Below, one piece after another: positions 695 through 12,507 of a stretch of 13,344 nucleotides of DNA; within the stretch, counting starts at the first letter, position 1, and each line of letters opens with the position of its first letter. Made by a program: the position numbers and the translations under genes. This DNA is from Candidatus Hodarchaeota archaeon (GTDB lineage: Archaea > Asgardarchaeota > Heimdallarchaeia > Hodarchaeales > Hodarchaeaceae). The notes beneath the pieces are model-generated. The model made no database searches. It had not been told where the DNA came from and worked only from the letters and a program-made list of their open reading frames with translations. Where the stretch lies: contig JAHQWW010000106.1 of NCBI GenBank assembly GCA_029856365.1, positions 1 through 13,344 on the forward strand, in the 5' to 3' direction.

Positions 695-3445
695 TTATGA
701 AATCAATTTTCTTTGACAAAGTGGACAAGTATTCTCTTTTTCAACTTGATTAGGATGAATAAAATCAATCTGACATTTGGTACATTCCTTAGGGTATTTT
801 ATTAAGGATCCAGCACAATAAGGACAATTTTCTTTCAACACAAAACATGATAAACAAACTGGGCGATAACACTTATTGCAATAATATATTTCTGTTGAGT
901 TCTTAAATACATTCTGACAGACCTGACAAGTAATTCCTAATGTTTGTGTTCTGAAATGTTTTTTGTCGATTTGTGTTAAGAAAACCTTCTTCAGATGAAG
1001 TCTTTGTCGCAGTGTTTCACGTACAGCTTTAAAGGATAAGTCACTTTCAAATGGAATAACTTGCCCATTAAGTAACATCTTTTCTATTTGGTTTAATCGA
1101 CGTAAGGATGCATATTCTTGAATAGAATAGTCTGAAAGTTTATTAGTAGTTTGACAAGTTATTTCACACGACGGACATAATAGATTCTCTCCTAATTCTT
1201 CAACTGAAACAATTGTTATGAGACATTGAGGACAGGTTAATGGCAATTCCTGTAAATCTTTATTACCACATGAGGGACATGTTAACATTCTCGTTAACTC
1301 TAAACTTTTATGACAACTTTGACAGAGATACTTTAAACATCGTTTACACTGATAAAATGTTGAATTAGAAGTAATTTCTTCATTTCTTAATTGACAATTT
1401 GCTTGAAATCTCTCCGCAAGATAGAATCTGCCTTTCATTTGTGTTAAAATAAGTCCAGCATCAAGAGCAAAGTGTCTAGCGAATCTTATTCCATCAAAAA
1501 TGTTACCTAAAGATCTTTCTAAACGTTTAAATGGAATTGCATTCCCCCTTTTGATATCACGAGCAAGATCCCCAAGTTCTTGGTCAAATTTAAGAAAACC
1601 GTCCGTTATGAATAAGTCAGAGTCTTTAATGAATGTTCCTTTTTGGGGTGCTTTCACTAATTCTTTTTTCAGTATTTCAGGATTCGTATGGAGAATATCT
1701 GCTAAATCAGAAATTCGGATCACAGGACCTAGTTTTCTATCAATTATGCATGGATTGTTCACATTACTGGAGCTCAACAGGGTTATACTGTTCTTAATGA
1801 TTTCTGCATCTTTTTTAATAAATTCTCTTAACCACTTTATTTTCACGTCTAATTTTTCAGCAAGATTTGATAATTTGATTGTTTTTTCCTTTCTTATATT
1901 TCGTAATAGATTTTTTTCAAAAGAACTTAACCAATCTGGGGTTATAAGAAAACTAGTTCCTTTAAATGTTTGAATAACGAAAATTCCTTCGATTTCATCT
2001 GAGTTTTGATCTAAATAATCTCTTAACCACCTCAGATTGACATCTAATTCCTCAGCAAGATTATTCAAAGTGATTCTGCGTTTATCTTGAACTGTTTCCA
2101 AGAGTAAATCATTAAAGGAGTTTAACCACTCAGTAGTGGCAAAAGTAGGATACTTATGATAATCAAGTACTTTCTGGATATCAGGGGCAACTCTTCGGAT
2201 CATTCTTTTAAGGTTAACATTATCAAGAGACCCCAATTCGTTTTGTAACTCACTTATTCTAAACCGACTTTTTACCTGAAGTATTCTAGAAATCTCTTCC
2301 TGAAGACGTTTTGTTTCAATATCTGGTTCCCTAATCTCATATGTCCGTAAAATTGCACCAATTATTAGTAGGGAAAAGGTGGAAATCAATAGAACTGCAA
2401 TCACCACCATATCCAAAGGAATCACCATCAGACTCACACAAACACCCAGGAAGATTGTTAGATAACGCTTATGAGCCCAGCTGATCCATGTGACTACTAA
2501 AACTAGACAAAAAATAATCCAATTCTGATGGAAAGCTGTAAGGATAGGAGTTAACGGATCAATAAAGTCTGTTGAGTACACTTCGATGAATAATGTTGAA
2601 GAAACAATTAGTCCTAGAATACCAGCTTTTAAACTTCCAAATTGTTCAGCAGTATAGCCTCTTTCTATTGTCATTGAGATCTGATAAAGCTGGTCTGGGA
2701 CACTTCTATTACTAAAATAGAATCTCAATATAGCGAATAATCCAATAGAAAAGAATACAAAGAATATGTGTACTTGGATAATGACCAATAATAATACTAC
2801 AAAGAAAAAGAAAAAAGGAATTTCACGGTCATTTTCAAAATCCTCATGAAGAAAACCGATTAACTTACGACGATAGTTACTCAACACACGATTGACTGTT
2901 AATGTCCATCTCGCAGTTGGACTCCCGTATTTCTTGTAAGAAACATCAGAATCGAAAAAAATATCAAGGGAGAGAAAAATGATAAGTAGAAAAAATAAAG
3001 CAAAGGGAGAAGCAAAACCAATATTAATAGATTCTATATTCATTAAAACATAAAGAATTCCAAGCAAAATTATTGAGATCAATAAACAAATGTCAAGGAA
3101 TTTAGGAAACCTTTCATTATAAGAAAAAGGGATTATGAACAAGGAAGAGCTTTGAGGGGGCAAAAATTTTTCAATTAACGACCACAAACCCCTTATTGTT
3201 AGATAAAAAGAATAACAGAAACAAAAAATAACTATAGGGATAAAATTGGGGTTTTTAATAATATTCCAGATAAAGATAATGATATCAGAGGGTACTAAAT
3301 TAGGGACTTCAATACCGATAATTTCTAAGCTAAGATTCCCCATAAGAAAGGCTAAGAGTAGTCCAAAAACGAGTGTAACACCTAGTTTCAAGACTTCAGC
3401 GCTTTTTTTTGTTCCATTATTTTTCTGTGGAGGATCTAATGACAT
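695..3445 (-). CDS. 916-aa polytopic membrane protein with central winged-helix (PCI-like) repeats and two C-terminal Cys-rich RING/FYVE-like + zinc-ribbon modules
   Basis: Long ORF. Residues ~18-368 are mostly hydrophobic segments. Residues ~375-625 carry repeated I(T/K/R/S)xxxLAxxL helix-turn-helix-like units. The C-terminal ~240 aa hold 11 intact CxxC pairs plus one degenerate pair in two homologous blocks. The ORF is secure, the function is inferred. Confidence 0.85.
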   Translation of the reverse strand: MSLDPPQKNNGTKKSAEVLKLGVTLVFGLLLAFLMGNLSLEIIGIEVPNLVPSDIIIFIWNIIKNPNFIPIVIFCFCYSFYLTIRGLWSLIEKFLPPQSSSLFIIPFSYNERFPKFLDICLLISIILLGILYVLMNIESINIGFASPFALFFLLIIFLSLDIFFDSDVSYKKYGSPTARWTLTVNRVLSNYRRKLIGFLHEDFENDREIPFFFFFVVLLLVIIQVHIFFVFFSIGLFAILRFYFSNRSVPDQLYQISMTIERGYTAEQFGSLKAGILGLIVSSTLFIEVYSTDFIDPLTPILTAFHQNWIIFCLVLVVTWISWAHKRYLTIFLGVCVSLMVIPLDMVVIAVLLISTFSLLIIGAILRTYEIREPDIETKRLQEEISRILQVKSRFRISELQNELGSLDNVNLKRMIRRVAPDIQKVLDYHKYPTFATTEWLNSFNDLLLETVQDKRRITLNNLAEELDVNLRWLRDYLDQNSDEIEGIFVIQTFKGTSFLITPDWLSSFEKNLLRNIRKEKTIKLSNLAEKLDVKIKWLREFIKKDAEIIKNSITLLSSSNVNNPCIIDRKLGPVIRISDLADILHTNPEILKKELVKAPQKGTFIKDSDLFITDGFLKFDQELGDLARDIKRGNAIPFKRLERSLGNIFDGIRFARHFALDAGLILTQMKGRFYLAERFQANCQLRNEEITSNSTFYQCKRCLKYLCQSCHKSLELTRMLTCPSCGNKDLQELPLTCPQCLITIVSVEELGENLLCPSCEITCQTTNKLSDYSIQEYASLRRLNQIEKMLLNGQVIPFESDLSFKAVRETLRQRLHLKKVFLTQIDKKHFRTQTLGITCQVCQNVFKNSTEIYYCNKCYRPVCLSCFVLKENCPYCAGSLIKYPKECTKCQIDFIHPNQVEKENTCPLCQRKLIS

Positions 3446-3651: not shown

Positions 3652-4158
3652 ATGAGTTTAAATGAATGTCCAAATTGTGGCGAATTAGCAAAACCAAATG
3701 AATTCTTCTGTCAATCCTGCGGGACAGCATTGACCAGTCCGCAAAGACCTCGTACTAAAGAAATTAGAGGTTATGTCCAAATCATTGGTACAGTTGAGAT
3801 CGTTTTGGGAATTATGGGCATAATAGCATCTATTTTATTCGCCTTTTTTGCAGTATTTATCCCTACTTTAATATCTGAGGGTGTAATTGAGTCAGCAGAA
3901 GAAAGTAGCGTATTAGCATCAGGAACAATAGTTACTTTTCTTGCTGTATTTATTGGTTTGATCGCAGTTTTATTTGTTATTTTTTCACTCACAGCTATTT
4001 TTAGTGGAATTAAACTAATGCAGTACAAGAATTCTGGTCGAATTGGTACAATGATAATCGGGGCTTTTTCCTTATTCCTCATCCCAGTGGGGACAATCTT
4101 TGGTGTTGCTGCGCTTTATATTTTAACAAAACCAGAAGTTGAACCTCTATTTATGTGA
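3652..4158 (+). CDS. Zinc-ribbon domain membrane protein
   Basis: N-terminal CPNCG-x9-CQSCG zinc ribbon followed by 3-4 hydrophobic helices. It has a good SD and a T-rich tract after the stop. Confidence 0.88.
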   Translation: MSLNECPNCGELAKPNEFFCQSCGTALTSPQRPRTKEIRGYVQIIGTVEIVLGIMGIIASILFAFFAVFIPTLISEGVIESAEESSVLASGTIVTFLAVFIGLIAVLFVIFSLTAIFSGIKLMQYKNSGRIGTMIIGAFSLFLIPVGTIFGVAALYILTKPEVEPLFM

Positions 4159-4462: not shown

Positions 4463-4657
4463 TTGGTTGAGGATAAGGATTTACGTCAGAAGTTTGACAA
4501 GGCCCTTGAGTTATTTATGAACAGGATTGAAGCCGATAATAGTATTCTCGCTGTTTTTGTGCTTGGTAGTTATACAAATGGTATTGTGTGGGAAAAATCG
4601 GATATCGACATGGTTATTGTAACCAAAGAGGAACAAGCATTGTTATTGGTATATTGA
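4463..4657 (+). pseudogene. Truncated Pol-beta-superfamily nucleotidyltransferase (N-terminal fragment)
   Basis: VFVLGSYTNGIVWEKSDIDMVIV matches the hGS-x(9-10)-DhD signature. The frame stops ~13 codons after the DID motif, before the strand that carries the third catalytic acid. Confidence 0.72.
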
Positions 4658-4714
4658 TGACCATCCTGATCTATTTGGTTTACGGAAAAAAGGAAAGAAA
4701 AATAAGAGTTGTCC

Positions 4715-5228
4715 ATGCGAGAGTCTCAAGAGAATGTATGATGGAAAATTTGGTCCTTTTTTATGATTGTACAGATTATTACAAGTTTTTTATTCTATAA
4801 TCTGAATGGATTTCTAGCAGTTTCATTACTTGGGTAGAATCTTGATAACAGGAGGAATTTTGGGAGGTGTTGATGTTTCTAATCTTCAAAAAATGGGTAA
4901 TATAGAAGCACAAGCAGGGCATCGAAAAAGGTTTGGGGTAGGCACTACAATCTTAGTTGATAGGGGACTTTACTCTGTATGTAGACACCCTCAATATTTT
5001 AGCTGGATGATATTCAATGTTACTTTAACCTTAATTGCTCAAAGTTGCATTGTTGCAATTTTGGGTGTTGGATCCATGATTTCAATCTATATACAGGCAC
5101 GTCAAGACGGCCACTCACTTATTCAAAAGTTCGGGGACAACTATAAACGATATATGGAATCTGTCCCACGAATGAACCTTTTCTTAGGAATTTTTCGACA
5201 AATTTGTCATAATATCTATAAAAATTGA
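4715..5228 (+). pseudogene. Disrupted isoprenylcysteine carboxyl methyltransferase / PEMT-family membrane methyltransferase
   Basis: The 3' frame (4830-5228) has LVDRGLYSVCRHPQY and FGDNYKRYMESVPR. The missing N-terminal TM part is in another frame: ATG 4715 MRESQENV*(TGA 4739)WKIWSFFMIVQIITSFLFYNLNGFLAVSLLG*(TAG 4835), joining ILITGGILG through a +1 shift near 4830-4838. Confidence 0.75.
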
Positions 5229-6996: not shown

Positions 6997-9057
6997 ATGA
7001 CCAGTTATGCAGAAGTTCAGCTTGATATTGAAAGCGTAAAGTCTGGAATCAGTGGGATAGTCTCCAAATTCTTTGAAAAGAGTATTAACAAAGATACCGC
7101 ACAGCTAAAAGACTCATTTATCAGTAAATATAATTCTATTCTGGAAAAATATAAAGAAGAAGATACTAATGATTATTTAAAGCTCCGACGATTGATCACT
7201 GAATTTAAACCTGCTTTATCATCTGTGTTACAACTTGGAGAAGAATTTGATGGCCTTTGCGAGTCGGTAATCCCTTTTTTCAATGTGATGCTGGATAGTG
7301 CCAAACAACAAATCATGGGAGAGTCTTCCCGATCCAAAACAAAGGGACCTGTGATGCCAGGGAGTGATCAATCAACCGATATTCGATATTATTGTACAGT
7401 ATGTAAGCAAAAATTTGATATTCCCCAAAAAATGAAAACTCAACTGCTAAACTCGGTTGAAAATGTGGTGATCCCCGAGCATCACGGAAAGGAAATGAAG
7501 ATCATGATAGTTCGGCTCAACCATACAGCCACTCCTCAGGAGGACAATAATGTAGTTGAGAGTAAGCTGGATGAATCCGAGTTTTCTGCTGCAATTCTAA
7601 TGGGTCATTTTAACTCCCTCGAATATAATGTTGAGTATCTGAAAGTATTGAGCGTCGGGATCGATGTAGGGTCTTCCACTTCTCATCTCGTCTTTTCTAG
7701 GATTACTTTAAAGCGGGAACAGAGTTTTTTTAACCCCTCAAATCGGTTCCTTCCAATTAATCGTGAATTAATTTACGAAGGGCGGATTATTTTTACTCCT
7801 CTCTCTAATTCCAACACTATAGATATTGAATCGGTTGTAAACTTCATTCAAGAGGAATATAAGAAAGCTAATATTGCAACCAATATGGTAGATACTGGTG
7901 CAGTGATTGTTACTGGAGAAGCAGCTAGAAAACAGAATGCAGCTGAGATCGTAAATCGAATATCTTCTGAAACAGGAAAATTCGTAAGTGCGACTGCAGG
8001 ACCTAATTTTGAAGCTCTTCTTGGAGCTATGGGAAGTGGTGTAGTTAAACAATCTCAAACAACTCAACGGACGATAATGAATGTAGATGTCGGGGGAGGT
8101 TCTTGTAAACTCTCTATTATATCAAAAGGTTATATTCACAGTACAGCAGCCATAAGAGTAGGCGGTCGATTGTTAGGAATAGATAAAAAATTCAAGATCT
8201 GGAGGATAGATGAACCCAGTCATTTTCTGATGCAGGAGCTGAACTTGAATTACAAACTGGGGGATATCATTTCAGAAAAAGATGTGAGAATTTTCGCTAA
8301 AAAATATGCAGAAATATTACTTGAAGTAATGAGAGGGCCAGCGAAAAGTAACATCGCAAAGAAATTGATATTAACCGATAATCTTGATTTTACCGTACCT
8401 ATAGACGAATACTCATTTTCAGGTGGAGTTGCAGAGATGATTTATGGTAGTACGAAGGAATATGATGACATTGGAAAATATCTTGCTCAAGAAATAAGGA
8501 ATCTCATGAATAATCTGAACTTACCTATAGTTGAGCCTGATAATAAAATTAGAGCTACTGTTATTGGCGCTGGAGCATTTTCTCTGTCGATATCAGGTTC
8601 TACTTGTTTTGTGGATGAAAATATTAAACTTCCAGTGTTTAATGTGCCAGTTATCCCTGTTAATGTGACATATGAGAATTTTAGTGCAAAAAAAGTTGAG
8701 GAAGAAGTAAATCGTGCTTTCAAGAATTTCGATTTTGAGGAAGGTAAGGATTTAGTTGCCTTGTATTTTACACGACCTATCTTATCCTCAAGTGAAAGGT
8801 TGTTAATTTTTGCCAAAGCTCTTGAAACTGCACTTTCCAACTCCGCTGTAAATAAAAAGATGATTATCTTACTTTTCGGAATGGACATTGCCAAAATTCT
8901 CGCAACAACCATCCGTCGCGAAACTTCGATCAAGAATAACCTAATTTGTCTTGATGAGTTAATCCTGAAGGCAGGTGACTGGATAGATATTGGGGAGCCT
9001 CTCCGTGATGGCGAAGTGTATCCTGTCACTGTCAAGAGTTTGATTTTTAAGGAATGA
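6997..9057 (+). CDS. eutA: EutA-family (ethanolamine ammonia-lyase reactivating factor-like, ASKHA ATPase) protein with ~210-aa N-terminal extension
   Basis: From residue ~215: SVGIDVGSSTSHLVFSR, DTGAVIVTGEAARKQNA, FVSATAGPNFEA, NVDVGGG, VGGRL, FSGGVAE, IRATVIGAG and GDWIDIGEPL...PVTVKSLIF, all characteristic of EutA. Confidence 0.9.
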   Translation: MTSYAEVQLDIESVKSGISGIVSKFFEKSINKDTAQLKDSFISKYNSILEKYKEEDTNDYLKLRRLITEFKPALSSVLQLGEEFDGLCESVIPFFNVMLDSAKQQIMGESSRSKTKGPVMPGSDQSTDIRYYCTVCKQKFDIPQKMKTQLLNSVENVVIPEHHGKEMKIMIVRLNHTATPQEDNNVVESKLDESEFSAAILMGHFNSLEYNVEYLKVLSVGIDVGSSTSHLVFSRITLKREQSFFNPSNRFLPINRELIYEGRIIFTPLSNSNTIDIESVVNFIQEEYKKANIATNMVDTGAVIVTGEAARKQNAAEIVNRISSETGKFVSATAGPNFEALLGAMGSGVVKQSQTTQRTIMNVDVGGGSCKLSIISKGYIHSTAAIRVGGRLLGIDKKFKIWRIDEPSHFLMQELNLNYKLGDIISEKDVRIFAKKYAEILLEVMRGPAKSNIAKKLILTDNLDFTVPIDEYSFSGGVAEMIYGSTKEYDDIGKYLAQEIRNLMNNLNLPIVEPDNKIRATVIGAGAFSLSISGSTCFVDENIKLPVFNVPVIPVNVTYENFSAKKVEEEVNRAFKNFDFEEGKDLVALYFTRPILSSSERLLIFAKALETALSNSAVNKKMIILLFGMDIAKILATTIRRETSIKNNLICLDELILKAGDWIDIGEPLRDGEVYPVTVKSLIFKE

Positions 9058-9159
9058 GATGCGTTTGAACGCGGTTTAGAGACATTTGAATCAATTGTAC
9101 ATCCTAAGAATTGCAAAAATTAGAATTACAGAACAAAAAAAACTGCTCCATTTCTGTGA

Positions 9160-9528
9160 GGTTATTGCCTCTCAGCAGATTTTACTAAACCAGAAATCAA
9201 TTCCCCTCCAGATAAAAGGTGTTATCTTGGGACAGAAGAAAAAATCGAATGGAAAGTAGGAGATAAGAATCCTGGAAGATTTGAAATACTAAAGGATAAT
9301 GATACAGTAAAGACCGAAGAATGGGAAAATGGGACAATCTCTTTTAATGTTAATAACTTACCTATGGGTGTTCATAAGTATACATTAGTTGTTCATGATA
9401 TAGGAAGAAACGAGAAAAGAGATAGTTTAAATGTAGAAATTCTAGAATTCACAACGACTACAAACAGTACCTTCATTTTTGCCTTGATATTTATGATTAT
9501 ACTAATAAAGAAGAGAAGGCTAGATTAA
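9160..9528 (+). pseudogene. 5'-truncated surface-protein remnant: one Ig-like domain, Thr-rich linker, hydrophobic anchor and KKRR tail
   Basis: Not in the ORF track. A stop-to-stop frame of 122 codons follows TGA 9157: ...DFTKPEINSPPD...IEWKVGDKNPGRFEILKDND...EWENGTISFNVNNLPMGVHKYTLVVHDIGRNEKRDSLNVEILEFTTTTNSTFIFALIFMIILIKKRRLD*. No start codon or signal peptide precedes the domain. Confidence 0.75.
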
Positions 9529-9707
9529 AAACCATCTTGCGTAACTTGCGTAATTACTGTTTTAAAATTTTAGTGCCAACTAGGAAAGGATTTTGAATAC
9601 AGCTAGCTAATTTTCTATGTGTAAAATTTCAAGTGAAACCCCTAATAAATATGGACTACTAAGACTTTTAGCACTTTCAATCGGTAATACAGGATGAACT
9701 GCTAAAA

Positions 9708-10538
9708 ATGCCAAATGAAATCCTCTATACATCGGTTAATGCCCAAACAAAGTTATTGTGTTTGTTAGGGAATCCTATTTCACATTCTTTTTCCCCCCCA
9801 GTCATGAACGCTTTAATCTCGATTTATAATCTTAATTTCTGTTATCTTGCCTTTGCTCCTAATGATCTTAAGAAAGCTATTGAGGGTCTCAAGGAGATAA
9901 ATTTTTTGGGAGCTAATATTACGATTCCTTTTAAAGAGAAAATTCTTCCACTATGTGACTCCATAAATCAATTCGTAGAGGAAATAAAAGCAATTAACAC
10001 GATTTGGTTTGATGGAGAGAAACTTCGAGGTTATAATACAGATATTGATGGAATTAGAAGTGCATTGACCGATTACATAGACCAAATTGGTAGCTATGCT
10101 GTTTTTGGAGCTGGTGGCGCCGCGCGAGCGTTATGTGTTGCTTTAAAAAACAAAAATGGTATATTAGTTAACCGTACTGAAGCTAAGGGGAAAAAGTTAG
10201 CTGAGGAATTCGGATTAGAATATATTTCTCTCACGGATTCCCCGAAAATTGTGCCAGATATTGATTTGATTGTTAATGCAACTCCAGTAGGAATGGCTGG
10301 CCAAACTGTTTCAACTATTGTTCCAACAAGCTGGATAAAAAAGTGTACCTTCGTATTCGATATGGTTTATAATCCATCGGTAACAAAGCTTGTCGAGCAA
10401 GCTATTGAATATCACAAAAACGTCATCAGTGGTGTAAAAATGTTCTTAAGCCAAGCAGCAAAAGCTTTTTCAACATGGACCAGTTTAGAACCCGATTTAG
10501 AAATTATGAGGTCAATTTGGAGGGAAATCACTAATTAA
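9708..10538 (+). CDS. aroE: Shikimate dehydrogenase
   Basis: Motifs GNPISHSFSP, GANITIPFKE, AINT, GYNTDIDG, GAGGAARA, VNRT, VNATPVGM and DMVYNP. Confidence 0.96.
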   Translation: MPNEILYTSVNAQTKLLCLLGNPISHSFSPPVMNALISIYNLNFCYLAFAPNDLKKAIEGLKEINFLGANITIPFKEKILPLCDSINQFVEEIKAINTIWFDGEKLRGYNTDIDGIRSALTDYIDQIGSYAVFGAGGAARALCVALKNKNGILVNRTEAKGKKLAEEFGLEYISLTDSPKIVPDIDLIVNATPVGMAGQTVSTIVPTSWIKKCTFVFDMVYNPSVTKLVEQAIEYHKNVISGVKMFLSQAAKAFSTWTSLEPDLEIMRSIWREITN

Positions 10539-11388
10539 GATTTTTAAAGGTCACGGGCACGCCTTTGGTGCTATCAGTGTTATTAACGCATTAGCCACGG
10601 GAACAGGAGCAGCTATAGGCTTAAAAGACCTCTTTACCGATGTTATTATTCATCTAAAAGAGAATAAGCCGCTACTGGCGCCTTCACACGCAGTTCAAAT
10701 TGCCATAAAAAATACTTTAACCTACATTGGAGAACAAAAGCCGTTAGGGGGAGTGGTTGTAGTTGGTTCAAATATTCCCATCGCTTTTGGTTTAAAAAGT
10801 TCTAGTGCTGTTATCAATGCTGCCGTGTTAGCGACCGTTAATGCTGCTAATGTGCAACTTTCTGTAAAACAGATTTTAGACATTAGTACAAGTGCTGCAA
10901 TACAAGCAAAGATTTCAGTGACGGGTGCTCTAGATGATGCAACTGCTTCTTTGTTAGGGGGTTTCTGCATCACTAATAACACTCAGAATATGCTATTGTG
11001 GCATGTACCAGTTCCACTTGAAATTATTGTTTTAATTTTCATTCCTGGTAAATTCAAGGCACGAAAAACAGTTAATTTTTTTGAGGAAATAACTAATTTT
11101 CGACAAAACGCCCTAGAAATGCGAGAAATCATTAAAAAAGCCAAAACAGATTTCTTAAAGACTATGACACGAAATGGATTTCTTGTTGCACGATCATTTA
11201 GATACGACACCACTCCAATGGATGTCGCTTTAAAAAATAAAGCACTAGCAGTCTCAATCTCGGGTACTGGACCTGCGATTGCTGCTTTATGTCACAAAAA
11301 GGATGAACCAAACATCATTAAAGCATGGGACGAACTAGATCCTTCACTAATCCTAAGATCCCGCGTGAGCTGCCTTCGTCTCATCTAA
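10534..11388 (+). CDS. aroK: Archaeal (GHMP-type) shikimate kinase; true start lies upstream of the track ORF and is probably a non-canonical ATT at 10534 or 10540
   Basis: The frame of track ORF 10753..11388 is open back to 10510 and encodes the conserved N-terminus GHGHAFGAISVINALATGTGAAIG. Downstream motifs are IPIAFGLKSSSA, SVTGALDDATASLLGG and SISGTGPA. The product is secure, the start coordinate is uncertain. Confidence 0.92.
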   Translation: MKIFKGHGHAFGAISVINALATGTGAAIGLKDLFTDVIIHLKENKPLLAPSHAVQIAIKNTLTYIGEQKPLGGVVVVGSNIPIAFGLKSSSAVINAAVLATVNAANVQLSVKQILDISTSAAIQAKISVTGALDDATASLLGGFCITNNTQNMLLWHVPVPLEIIVLIFIPGKFKARKTVNFFEEITNFRQNALEMREIIKKAKTDFLKTMTRNGFLVARSFRYDTTPMDVALKNKALAVSISGTGPAIAALCHKKDEPNIIKAWDELDPSLILRSRVSCLRLI

Positions 11389-11391
11389 AAA

Positions 11392-12507
11392 TCAAGGCTT
11401 TTTAGGCTTGCTAACTTCAGCTAACAAGATCAAATCTGCAAACACTAGAGTAGTTAGTTGTTCCACTATTATCACTGCTCTGGGTACAATACACGGATCA
11501 AACCGTCCGCCTGTTTTCATCACTATATTTTCCTTTGTTTTTAGATTAACTGTATGTTGGGGTATGTGAATCGACGGTGTTGGTTTAAATGCTAAACGGA
11601 AGGTAATAGGAGAGATACCAGTTGATATTCCACCTAATATTCCTCCACTATGATTCGTTTTAGTCTTGAAACGACCTTTCTGAGAGTTGTAATATAATTG
11701 GTCATTGGCTTCAGATCCTTTCATCTGAGCTAATCGAAATCCTGTTCCGAAATCAATGGCACATGCCCCTGGGATACTAAACATACCTGAAGCTAGGTAA
11801 CTCTCAATATTATTGAAAAGTGGTTCCCCAATACCTGTTGGAATGCCATTAATAATGCAAGAAATTATCCCGCCAATACTATCTCCTTCATTTTTTACCT
11901 TAACAATTTCCTCTACCATTAAACGGTCAATCTCAGGATCGGGGCACCTAGACAGATAATTATAGGGATCTCTTTCAAAAATTCCTTCATCAAATTCATT
12001 CATTTGAAATGAAATACCGCCAATTTGTGAAGTGTATGTAAAGATACGGACATTTGCGTAATTCAAAAGCAATTTCTTGGCAATACAACCTGCTGCTGTT
12101 ATCGCAACCATCACTCTACCAGAAAAACGACCGCCTCCTCGGTAATCATTGAAGCCACCGTATTTTAATCTCGTTGTAAAGTCTGAATGACCAGGGCGTG
12201 GAGTATGCTTCCGTTTTTCATACTCTGGACTATCTCTTAGATCTTCATTGGTTATCTCCAAGGTAATAGGAGCACCAGTGCTAAATCCATTGAAAACACC
12301 TGATTTGATTTTGAACTCATTAGATTCTTTCCGCTCACTAGTAATCCCTGGCAAGTATCTTGCTTCACCCTTCTTAAGAGTCTCTTCGATTTCTTGGGGA
12401 TCAATCAATATACCAGGTGGACATCCATCAATAACGACTCCTATTGACTCTCCATAACTCTCACCAAAGATGGTGATTCGAAATATTTGACCAAAAGAAT
12501 TTGACAT
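11392..12507 (-). CDS. aroC: Chorismate synthase (with atypical signature residues)
   Basis: Motifs NSFGQIFRITIFGESYG, GVVIDGCPPG, SGVFNGFSTGAPI, PRPGHSD, DYRGGGRFSGR, GDSIGG, TNHSGGILGGISTG, FKPTPSI and GRFDPCIVPRA. Confidence 0.95.
   Translation of the reverse strand: MSNSFGQIFRITIFGESYGESIGVVIDGCPPGILIDPQEIEETLKKGEARYLPGITSERKESNEFKIKSGVFNGFSTGAPITLEITNEDLRDSPEYEKRKHTPRPGHSDFTTRLKYGGFNDYRGGGRFSGRVMVAITAAGCIAKKLLLNYANVRIFTYTSQIGGISFQMNEFDEGIFERDPYNYLSRCPDPEIDRLMVEEIVKVKNEGDSIGGIISCIINGIPTGIGEPLFNNIESYLASGMFSIPGACAIDFGTGFRLAQMKGSEANDQLYYNSQKGRFKTKTNHSGGILGGISTGISPITFRLAFKPTPSIHIPQHTVNLKTKENIVMKTGGRFDPCIVPRAVIIVEQLTTLVFADLILLAEVSKPKKP

Follow-up and report, generated by a model that had tools for sequence, protein, structure and literature searches.

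A Hodarchaeota protein joining a UFL1-like winged-helix array and twin RING-like zinc modules to a lineage-specific polytopic membrane domain

Results

A single constrained gene encodes a membrane protein of three parts

The window analyzed here is the 13,344-nucleotide stretch at positions 1-13,344 of contig JAHQWW010000106.1 of a Candidatus Hodarchaeota archaeon (assembly GCA_029856365.1), and its main subject is P0001, a gene on the minus strand at positions 695-3445 (stop codon included) whose single open reading frame (ORF) of 916 codons has no internal stops. A first-pass annotation, made from the sequence letters, had divided the 916-aa product into a membrane domain, a repeat region and a Cys-rich region, and these boundaries map correctly onto the residues: nucleotides 3394-2342 encode the hydrophobic part (residues 18-368), 2320-1570 the repeat part (residues 376-626) and 1550-695 the Cys-rich part (residues 632-916). 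Four orthologs, from sources labelled Promethearchaeota/Hodarchaeota, are 63-79% identical to P0001 and collinear with it along the full length, and all 23 Cys residues between positions 684 and 910 are invariant among them. The ratio of nonsynonymous to synonymous substitution rates (dN/dS) was ∼0.2-0.3 and was alike for the transmembrane (TM), winged-helix and zinc parts, from which we conclude that P0001 is a real gene under purifying selection. When the whole protein was compared with Pfam and NCBIfam, no family scored above its cut-off.

The tandem winged helices resemble those of UFL1

The winged-helix repeats proposed in the first-pass annotation were borne out by an AlphaFold2 (AF2) model of residues 372-690 (predicted local distance difference test, pLDDT, 81.7), which contains five consecutive winged helices, each with the order helix-strand-helix-helix-strand-strand. 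This array occupies residues 372-680 (window 1406-2332, minus strand), and its fifth winged helix is the one directly before zinc module 1. The resemblance is specifically to UFL1 (E3 UFM1-protein ligase 1): in a Foldseek comparison with the PDB, ranks 1-5 were human UFL1 (8ohd_A, 8qfc_B, 9gy4_E) and, after it, a UFL1-DDRGK1 chimera (8b9x), with E-values from 3.9e-8 to 8.9e-7 over 274-333 aligned columns; the next matches were SelB winged helices 1-4 (E 2e-4) and ESCRT-II (endosomal sorting complex required for transport; E 4e-3).

The signal at the level of sequence points the same way and is faint. A profile of the array, built without any protein positive for the UFL1 family PF09743 (IPR018611), had UFL1 as its two best PDB matches (E 6e-4 and 0.02). 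PF09743 itself scored P0001 at 16.4 bits (E 0.007), below its gathering cut-off of 23.2; precomputed matches in the orthologs P0002 and P0004 are faint, and a PF09743 search of the host genome returned P0001 as its sole match, again below the cut-off. By Pfam's criterion, the array of P0001 is not a member of PF09743. We consider the array UFL1-like by its modelled fold, with marginal support from sequence.

The C-terminal arm is a duplicated unit of winged helix, RING-like module and ribbon

The C-terminal 280 residues of P0001 are an internal duplication, in that a hidden Markov model (HMM) of the second copy finds the first with an independent E-value (i-E) of 2.6e-10. The duplicated unit consists, in order, of a PCI/DDRGK1-type winged helix, four Cys pairs (RING-like), an 'LP' motif and two further Cys pairs (a ribbon), all features of both copies being on the minus strand. 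Copy 1 includes RING-like module 1 (residues 684-726; window 1268-1396), with C684, R687 in the place of ligand 2, C700/C703, C708/C711 and C723/C726, and zinc ribbon 1 (residues 735-760; window 1166-1243), which reads LP-x2-C738-x2-C741-x15-C757-x2-C760. Copy 2 begins with a sixth winged helix (residues 770-835; window 941-1138), assigned from Pfam PCI, which matches 13 of 46 members of the unit family (best E 7.5e-11), and from an AF2 model of residues 795-916, in which its helix 3 and wing are visible. There follow RING-like module 2 (residues 840-877; window 815-928), with all eight Cys ligands on a β-β-α core, and zinc ribbon 2 (residues 885-910; window 716-793), with C888/C891 and C907/C910. 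The twin zinc modules of the first-pass annotation are therefore homologous copies, but the first has only seven of the eight ligands, with Arg or Lys at ligand 2.

The Cys pattern quoted earlier for the last module is exact in the translation (C840-x2-C843-x12-C856-x2-C859-x4-C864-x2-C867-x6-C874-x2-C877, then C888-x2-C891-x15-C907-x2-C910). The last two Cys pairs of each copy make up a ribbon of their own.

RING domains place their ligands with the spacing C-x2-C-x(9-39)-C-x(1-3)-[CH]-x(2-4)-C-x2-C-x(4-48)-C-x2-C. Module 2 has all eight ligands at this spacing (C840 to C877) and module 1 has seven. The AF2 model of residues 795-916 (pLDDT 89.8) shows the RING β-β-α core, its helix starting at ligands 5 and 6. 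Because this domain is small, it was judged by the composition of the Foldseek list, which held no match at E≤0.001, and by VIA Z-scores. VIA (model residues 41-91) placed the archaeal ribosomal protein aS34 at the top (Z 6.7), followed by ZZ domains (Z 5.0-5.7), the C4C4 RING of TFIIH p44 (Z 4.5, 30% identity) and many RING E3 ligases (Z 3.6-4.3), and the Foldseek and Atlas neighbors of the zinc-unit model formed the same kind of list. All top structural neighbors of module 2 are binuclear cross-brace domains. We conclude that module 2, as modelled, is probably a C4C4 RING-like cross-brace and not a pair of independent ribbons.

Profile searches gave a similar picture once the whole unit family was used. 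The unit profile matched TFIIH p44 (E 2.8e-6, covering both its ribbon and its C4C4 RING), the zinc finger of CesA (7e-6), aS34 (3e-5) and RING1B (1.5e-4) among PDB sequences, so that the p44 likeness noted in the first-pass annotation is found by profile as well as by fold. A profile restricted to the orthologs gave just insignificant RING, B-box, FYVE and Rpo12 matches (E>0.1). Pfam searches of 57 instances of the unit yielded sub-threshold matches only (zf-RING_2, C3HC4_3, Prok-RING_2/4 and others), a mixture of binuclear fingers and double zinc ribbons.

An alignment of these 57 instances, which are related sequences, allowed the ligands to be compared position by position. Cys is nearly invariant at ligands 1, 3, 4, 5 and 7; ligand 2 can be Cys, Asp or His, with Arg or Lys in copy 1 of P0001, and ligand 6 can be Cys, His or Asp. 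Non-Cys residues occur at ligands 2 and 6 together in just one instance, and of the two instances without ligand 1 or ligand 5, P0038 also has a non-Cys residue at ligand 6 and P0043 has one at each of ligands 2 and 6. This pattern of swaps at ligands 1, 2, 5 and 6 fits one zinc site shared by them in a cross-brace, and lends that arrangement modest backing, given the relatedness of the sequences.

In RING ligases, the residues two after ligand 1 (L1+2), four after ligand 6 (L6+4) and one after ligand 7 (L7+1) are E2-contact positions. Across the 57 instances, L1+2 is Ile, Val, Leu or Met in 53, L7+1 is Pro in 51 and L6+4 is Leu or Ile in 30; the three residues, in the order L1+2, L6+4, L7+1, are L686, Leu and P724 in module 1 and V842, K871 and P875 in module 2.

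Two other binuclear fingers were compared with the modules. A FYVE finger was rejected: the WxxD, R(R/K)HHCR and RVC motifs are absent from both modules (the absence of the second, PI3P-binding motif had already been noted in the first pass), and FYVE matches are weak (E 4 in the PDB; Pfam FYVE in 6 of 57 instances, best E 0.0028). The ZZ likeness by fold (Z 5.0-5.7) is to the ZZ domains of Nbr1, BIG, KCMF1, p62 and HERC2; there was no Pfam ZZ match and a weak ZZ_ADA2 match in 4 of 57 instances, and the last pair is Cys/Cys, not His/His. ZZ domains have the signature C-x2-C...C-x2-C...C-x2-C...H...H and an acidic pocket for peptides.

A probably cytoplasmic arm on a membrane domain confined to one genus

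The polytopic membrane domain (residues 19-366; window 2348-3391, minus strand) has ∼10 TM helices by hydropathy, within the 10-12 first estimated. In a 10-TM, N-in/C-in model, the inside loops carry 22-29 Lys plus Arg residues and the outside loops 1-3, in each of five orthologs. By the positive-inside rule, this bias would put the soluble arm on the cytoplasmic side, in agreement with what the first-pass annotation had expected. At many positions of the TM part a polar or charged residue is invariant, D118, D161, N185, R186, D202, R207, E208, N308 and D345 being examples.

No Pfam or NCBIfam family matched the TM domain. In an exhaustive HMM search of 1.84e9 representatives it was covered by P0001's own family only, and Atlas gave nothing usable, its model of the domain being poor (pLDDT 0.56). 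With a protein query, the domain turned up in 4 of 22 host-genus genomes, always inside a frame of 914-921 aa; a search of 39 genomes belonging to other genera of the host class found none. The ∼10-TM domain of P0001 appears to be lineage-specific.

The unit recurs in soluble and membrane-bound relatives

The same search of 1.84e9 representatives found the unit of winged helix, RING-like module and ribbon in 47 representative proteins. The host genome (4.24 Mb, 83.6% complete) has nine unit matches at E≤1e-3, and strong full-length matches occur in 10 of 10 sampled genomes of the host genus (4-15 each), with one outlier elsewhere; weaker matches to the RING core were found in 92 of 200 genomes of the phylum.

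Among the paralogs, P0006 (583 aa, soluble) is collinear with residues 680-881 of P0001 (E 1e-9), at ∼24% identity across the common part. A profile of the P0006 family matched UFL1/DDRGK1 first (1.6e-6 to 1.8e-4) and then the RING E3 ligases UHRF1 and BRE1, and the winged helix ahead of the P0006 RING matches that of DDRGK1. An hhalign comparison of the winged-helix arrays of P0001 and the P0006 family gave a probability of 57% (E 1e-4); we take the two arrays as homologous mainly because both match UFL1. A protein from another Asgard group, P0032, passed the PF09743 cut-off (E 4.6e-20) and ends in the same unit, which shows, as judged by family match, that bona fide Asgard UFL1 homologues carry a RING-plus-ribbon unit. 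A search from P0032 for UFL1-like Asgard proteins returned only P0032 itself.

Many relatives of the unit are membrane proteins, and some multi-span relatives hold up to three units. In P0019, P0011, P0020, P0022 and P0010, WD40 or PKD/CARDB/DUF11 ectodomains, or multi-span N-termini, precede a TM helix and the unit. Such receptor-like relatives suggest that Heimdall-group Asgard archaea have a family of transmembrane proteins that act in signalling or as ligases. Elsewhere in the host genome (locus L002 on contig C34, G000:C34; 115-1773, plus strand) lies a 552-aa paralog with a Gly/Arg- and Trp-rich low-complexity N-terminus, two TM helices flanking a β-rich loop, two double zinc ribbons and one terminal RING-like finger.

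The host encodes a ubiquitin system

As the first-pass annotation had assumed, the host is an Asgard archaeon with genes for ubiquitin, E1 and E2. At least two E2s are present, both catalytic-looking: P0058 (contig C32, canonical), which carries F62/SPA-type RING-binding motifs, and P0057 (contig C91), which belongs to a gene cluster. The host also encodes a ubiquitin E2 variant (UEV) protein and a small zf-RING_2 protein. The P0006 locus has the order JAB, E2, a 264-aa protein, a ubiquitin-like protein (Ubl), E1, a small zinc protein, P0006, SPFH and EAP30, and the slot of P0006 after Ubl-E1 is kept in three genomes, its relatives on two other contigs being 37-46% identical. The host ubiquitin locus spans 5147-14097 of the region examined (L012; G000:C91:34000-52000); it opens with a possibly CCDC47-like 269-aa protein before JAB, its 264-aa product is a zinc protein and its last gene is EAP30/Vps22-36-like. 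Within L012, the mature Ubl is encoded at 8212-8619 and E1 at 8659-9888. This order is kept on L013 and L014, where it is flanked by Arf-like GTPases. A second ubiquitin-related neighborhood (L018; G000:C32:4000-22000) holds the canonical E2 (151 aa), a 111-aa zf-RING_2 protein, Arf- and Rab-like GTPases and a 258-aa UEV-like protein.

UFM1 (PF03671), UFC1 (PF08694) and DDRGK1 (PF09756) were each sought in the host genome, which is 83.6% complete, and none was found above cut-off, on which grounds a UFMylation pathway was rejected.

Neighboring genes in the window

The kept neighbors of P0001 are a divergent gene for a 168-aa membrane protein (window 3652-4158, plus strand), with an N-terminal zinc ribbon and a DUF4064-like four-helix part, whose position beside the orthologs is conserved, and an ADP-forming acyl-CoA synthetase-like gene. 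One orthologous locus holds two copies of the 168-aa zinc-ribbon/DUF4064 gene. At 4463-4800 (plus strand), the reading frame of a Pol-beta-type nucleotidyltransferase is open for just 64 aa from its N-terminus; at the orthologous loci this gene is intact (311 aa) and a 953-aa UvrA-like gene follows it. The segment has the look of a gene in decay or of a rearrangement local to the host genome. The 686-aa protein encoded at 6997-9057 (plus strand) has a full EutA domain (ethanolamine ammonia-lyase reactivase-like, E 1e-129) behind an unassigned N-terminal extension of ∼215 aa. The genes at 9708-12507 are ordinary ones for shikimate dehydrogenase, archaeal GHMP-type shikimate kinase and chorismate synthase. 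Scans of the window for tRNAs and Rfam families found nothing.

Discussion

P0001 is new in that its UFL1-like, twin RING-like arm is fused to a polytopic membrane domain private to its family; its components and its cluster-encoded paralog P0006 belong to known kinds. The suggestion that the layout is undescribed holds only in part: UFL1-type (IPR018611) proteins have already been counted as the E3 of Asgard ubiquitin-ESCRT clusters (Hatano et al. 2022, PMC9192718, who use IPR018611 as the E3 marker; also the Liu 2020 preprint), and P0001 is a membrane-fused paralog of these. P0001 has in common with such proteins (the P0006 family and P0032) the UFL1-like winged-helix array and the C-terminal order RING-like module, ribbon, winged helix, RING-like module. 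They, however, are soluble, ∼585-605 aa long and encoded in the clusters, whereas P0001 has a TM domain and sits away from ubiquitin genes. UFL1 itself also has a tandem winged-helix array and is also held at the membrane, but it has no RING, its partners are UFM1 and UFC1, and its tether is the non-covalently bound, single-pass DDRGK1; P0001 instead has two RING-like modules and a fused ∼10-TM anchor.

The zinc modules have relatives in quite different settings. The C4C4 RING of TFIIH p44/Ssl1 and the N-terminal zinc finger of CesA (zf-UDP) match the modules in their eight-ligand, all-Cys spacing, including the x4 that separates pair 2 from pair 3, and the unit of P0001 also matches the p44 zinc-ribbon motif CPxC...LPxxCxxC. 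In p44, however, the ribbon lies ahead of the RING, and the contexts of both fingers (a vWA domain and a glycosyltransferase, respectively) are unrelated to P0001. Assembly or oligomerization is the main known role of the p44 and CesA fingers. The top structural neighbor of module 2 by Foldseek, by VIA and probably in Atlas, aS34, is a RING-like two-zinc ribosomal protein of Thermoprotei (PDB 9fhl; PMC11698992); it differs in being a free-standing 72-aa protein with no winged helix, ribbon or membrane part. Nse1 of the SMC5/6 complex, which has tandem winged helices and a variant RING, likewise passes directly from winged helix to RING-like domain, but the match is weak (VIA Z 4.0, 29% identity; 92 aligned columns in Foldseek), and Nse1, whose finger is of the C4HC3 type, is a soluble protein of chromatin. 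The parallel that the first-pass annotation drew with the membrane ligases Hrd1 and Doa10/MARCH6 holds in so far as a multi-span membrane domain is joined to a cytoplasmic RING-like domain. It does not extend to the TM domain, which has no detectable homology in Pfam, NCBIfam, the HMM search or Atlas, nor to the type of finger, which is RING-H2 or RING-CH in those ligases and C4C4 in P0001 (the synoviolin RING matches at E 1.7).

We favor the prediction that P0001 belongs to the Asgard ubiquitin system as a RING-type ligase, or an adaptor for one, that is anchored in the membrane, and we assign this a probability of roughly 50%. On this reading, the winged-helix array would work as it does in UFL1, giving a large partner or substrate a place to dock at the membrane, and the RING-like domains would recruit a ubiquitin-charged E2, for which P0058 (C32) and P0057 (C91) are the candidates. 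Ubiquitin would then be passed to membrane-proximal targets and could feed the ESCRT or proteasome pathways of the host. P0006, in its cluster of ubiquitin, E1, E2 and JAB genes, may be the general ligase, and P0001 a membrane-dedicated offshoot. The prediction draws on the ligand spacing and modelled fold of the RING-like modules, the E2-contact residues kept in the unit family, the UFL1-like array, the place of P0006 beside Ubl and E1, the E2s and UEV of the host and the charge bias of the membrane domain. It also draws on the use of IPR018611 as an E3 marker and on an E1-E2-RING cascade from a helarchaeial source that has been reconstituted in vitro (bioRxiv 2023.07.25.550441).

Several observations weigh against the ligase prediction. 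Module 1 has no ligand 2 (Arg or Lys stands there) and so retains seven of eight RING-like ligands, while module 2 has K871 at L6+4 and no linchpin Arg or Lys after ligand 8. No Pfam RING family reaches its cut-off. The pairing of ligands into zinc sites is deduced from fold matches to the model, and a p44-like site formed by C874/C877/C888/C891 is an alternative. The closest solved relatives include non-ligases (the CesA zinc finger, aS34, ZZ domains and, in part, p44). Finally, the gene is limited to a few genomes of one genus, and no ubiquitin-system or ESCRT gene adjoins P0001 or its orthologs.

The main rival explanation is that P0001 is a non-catalytic membrane scaffold or receptor, its winged-helix array docking the ribosome, ESCRT-II or another winged-helix protein with no transfer of ubiquitin, and its zinc modules serving in oligomerization (as in CesA), in structure (as in p44 and aS34) or in the binding of peptide ends (as in ZZ domains). 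Most of the closest relatives of solved structure serve in binding or assembly, and UFL1 is a scaffold that lacks a RING; these two points make it the main rival. By fold, the zinc unit scores highest against the ribosomal protein aS34 and against ZZ domains, ahead of ligase RINGs, and by profile its first matches are the fingers of p44 and CesA. UFL1, itself without a RING, binds 60S ribosomal subunits at the membrane (8ohd and 8qfc), one ligand of module 1 is degenerate, and Asgard UFL1 has been proposed to act independently of UFM1 (Picchianti et al. 2023). Yet the RING E2-contact residues are kept in the unit family, the paralog P0006 lies inside an E1/E2/Ubl cluster, and the Pfam signature of ZZ domains is limited to the weak ZZ_ADA2 matches, so that we regard this explanation as possible but less probable than a ligase or adaptor.

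Two further explanations assign the function to other properties of the protein. The TM domain may hold the main function, as a transporter, enzyme or sensor, with the winged-helix and zinc arm as a regulatory or signalling tail; the many invariant polar and charged TM residues, a dN/dS in the TM part as low as in the rest of P0001, and the relatives that couple WD40, PKD or CARDB ectodomains through a TM helix to the winged-helix and zinc unit speak for this. Against it, the domain resembles no transporter or enzyme family in Pfam, NCBIfam, the 1.84e9 representatives or Atlas, and we think it unlikely; it is in any case compatible with a ligase and does not exclude one. More improbable still is a membrane-tethered nucleic-acid-binding regulator whose winged helices and ribbons bind DNA or RNA in the manner of SelB winged helices 1-4 or of TFIIE/TFIIH-type proteins with winged helices and zinc. 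SelB is indeed the next fold match after UFL1 (E 2e-4), and there are weak profile matches to AsnC-type regulators and to Rpo12 and other polymerase ribbons, but UFL1 ranks above SelB by more than three orders of magnitude, the AsnC matches have E>0.06, and the context of P0006 is ubiquitin and ESCRT, not transcription.

Picchianti et al. (2023) placed the origin of both UFL1 and DDRGK1 in Asgard archaea and suggested a UFM1-independent role; of the UFMylation components, these two are thought to be Asgard-born and to predate UFM1 (PMC10183829). A more speculative extension of the ligase prediction, which we put forward tentatively and hold to be rather doubtful, is that Asgard UFL1 homologues were originally RING ligases that used ubiquitin, that tethering of the UFL1 scaffold to membranes is old and recurrent (by direct polytopic fusion here and through DDRGK1 in eukaryotes), and that eukaryotic UFL1 lost its RING when it was re-wired to UFM1 and UFC1. 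P0001 might then have membrane-bound ribosomes or membrane cargo as its targets, in a pre-eukaryotic analogue of UFL1-DDRGK1 quality control that has no endoplasmic reticulum (ER).

P0001 and its paralogs show RING-like fingers to be part of the Asgard UFL1-type winged-helix scaffold, which in one lineage has been welded to a membrane domain. They add to the evidence for an expanded, largely membrane-associated RING-like repertoire in the host group, in which many of the units stand behind ectodomains. Since residues 372-916 form a soluble arm, and since E1, Ubl and two E2s, the candidate partners of this arm, are all encoded in the same genome, reconstitution in vitro should be straightforward. 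Together, these proteins offer a concrete and testable picture of ancestral UFL1 function, in which UFL1 would have been a ubiquitin-using RING ligase able to act at the membrane.

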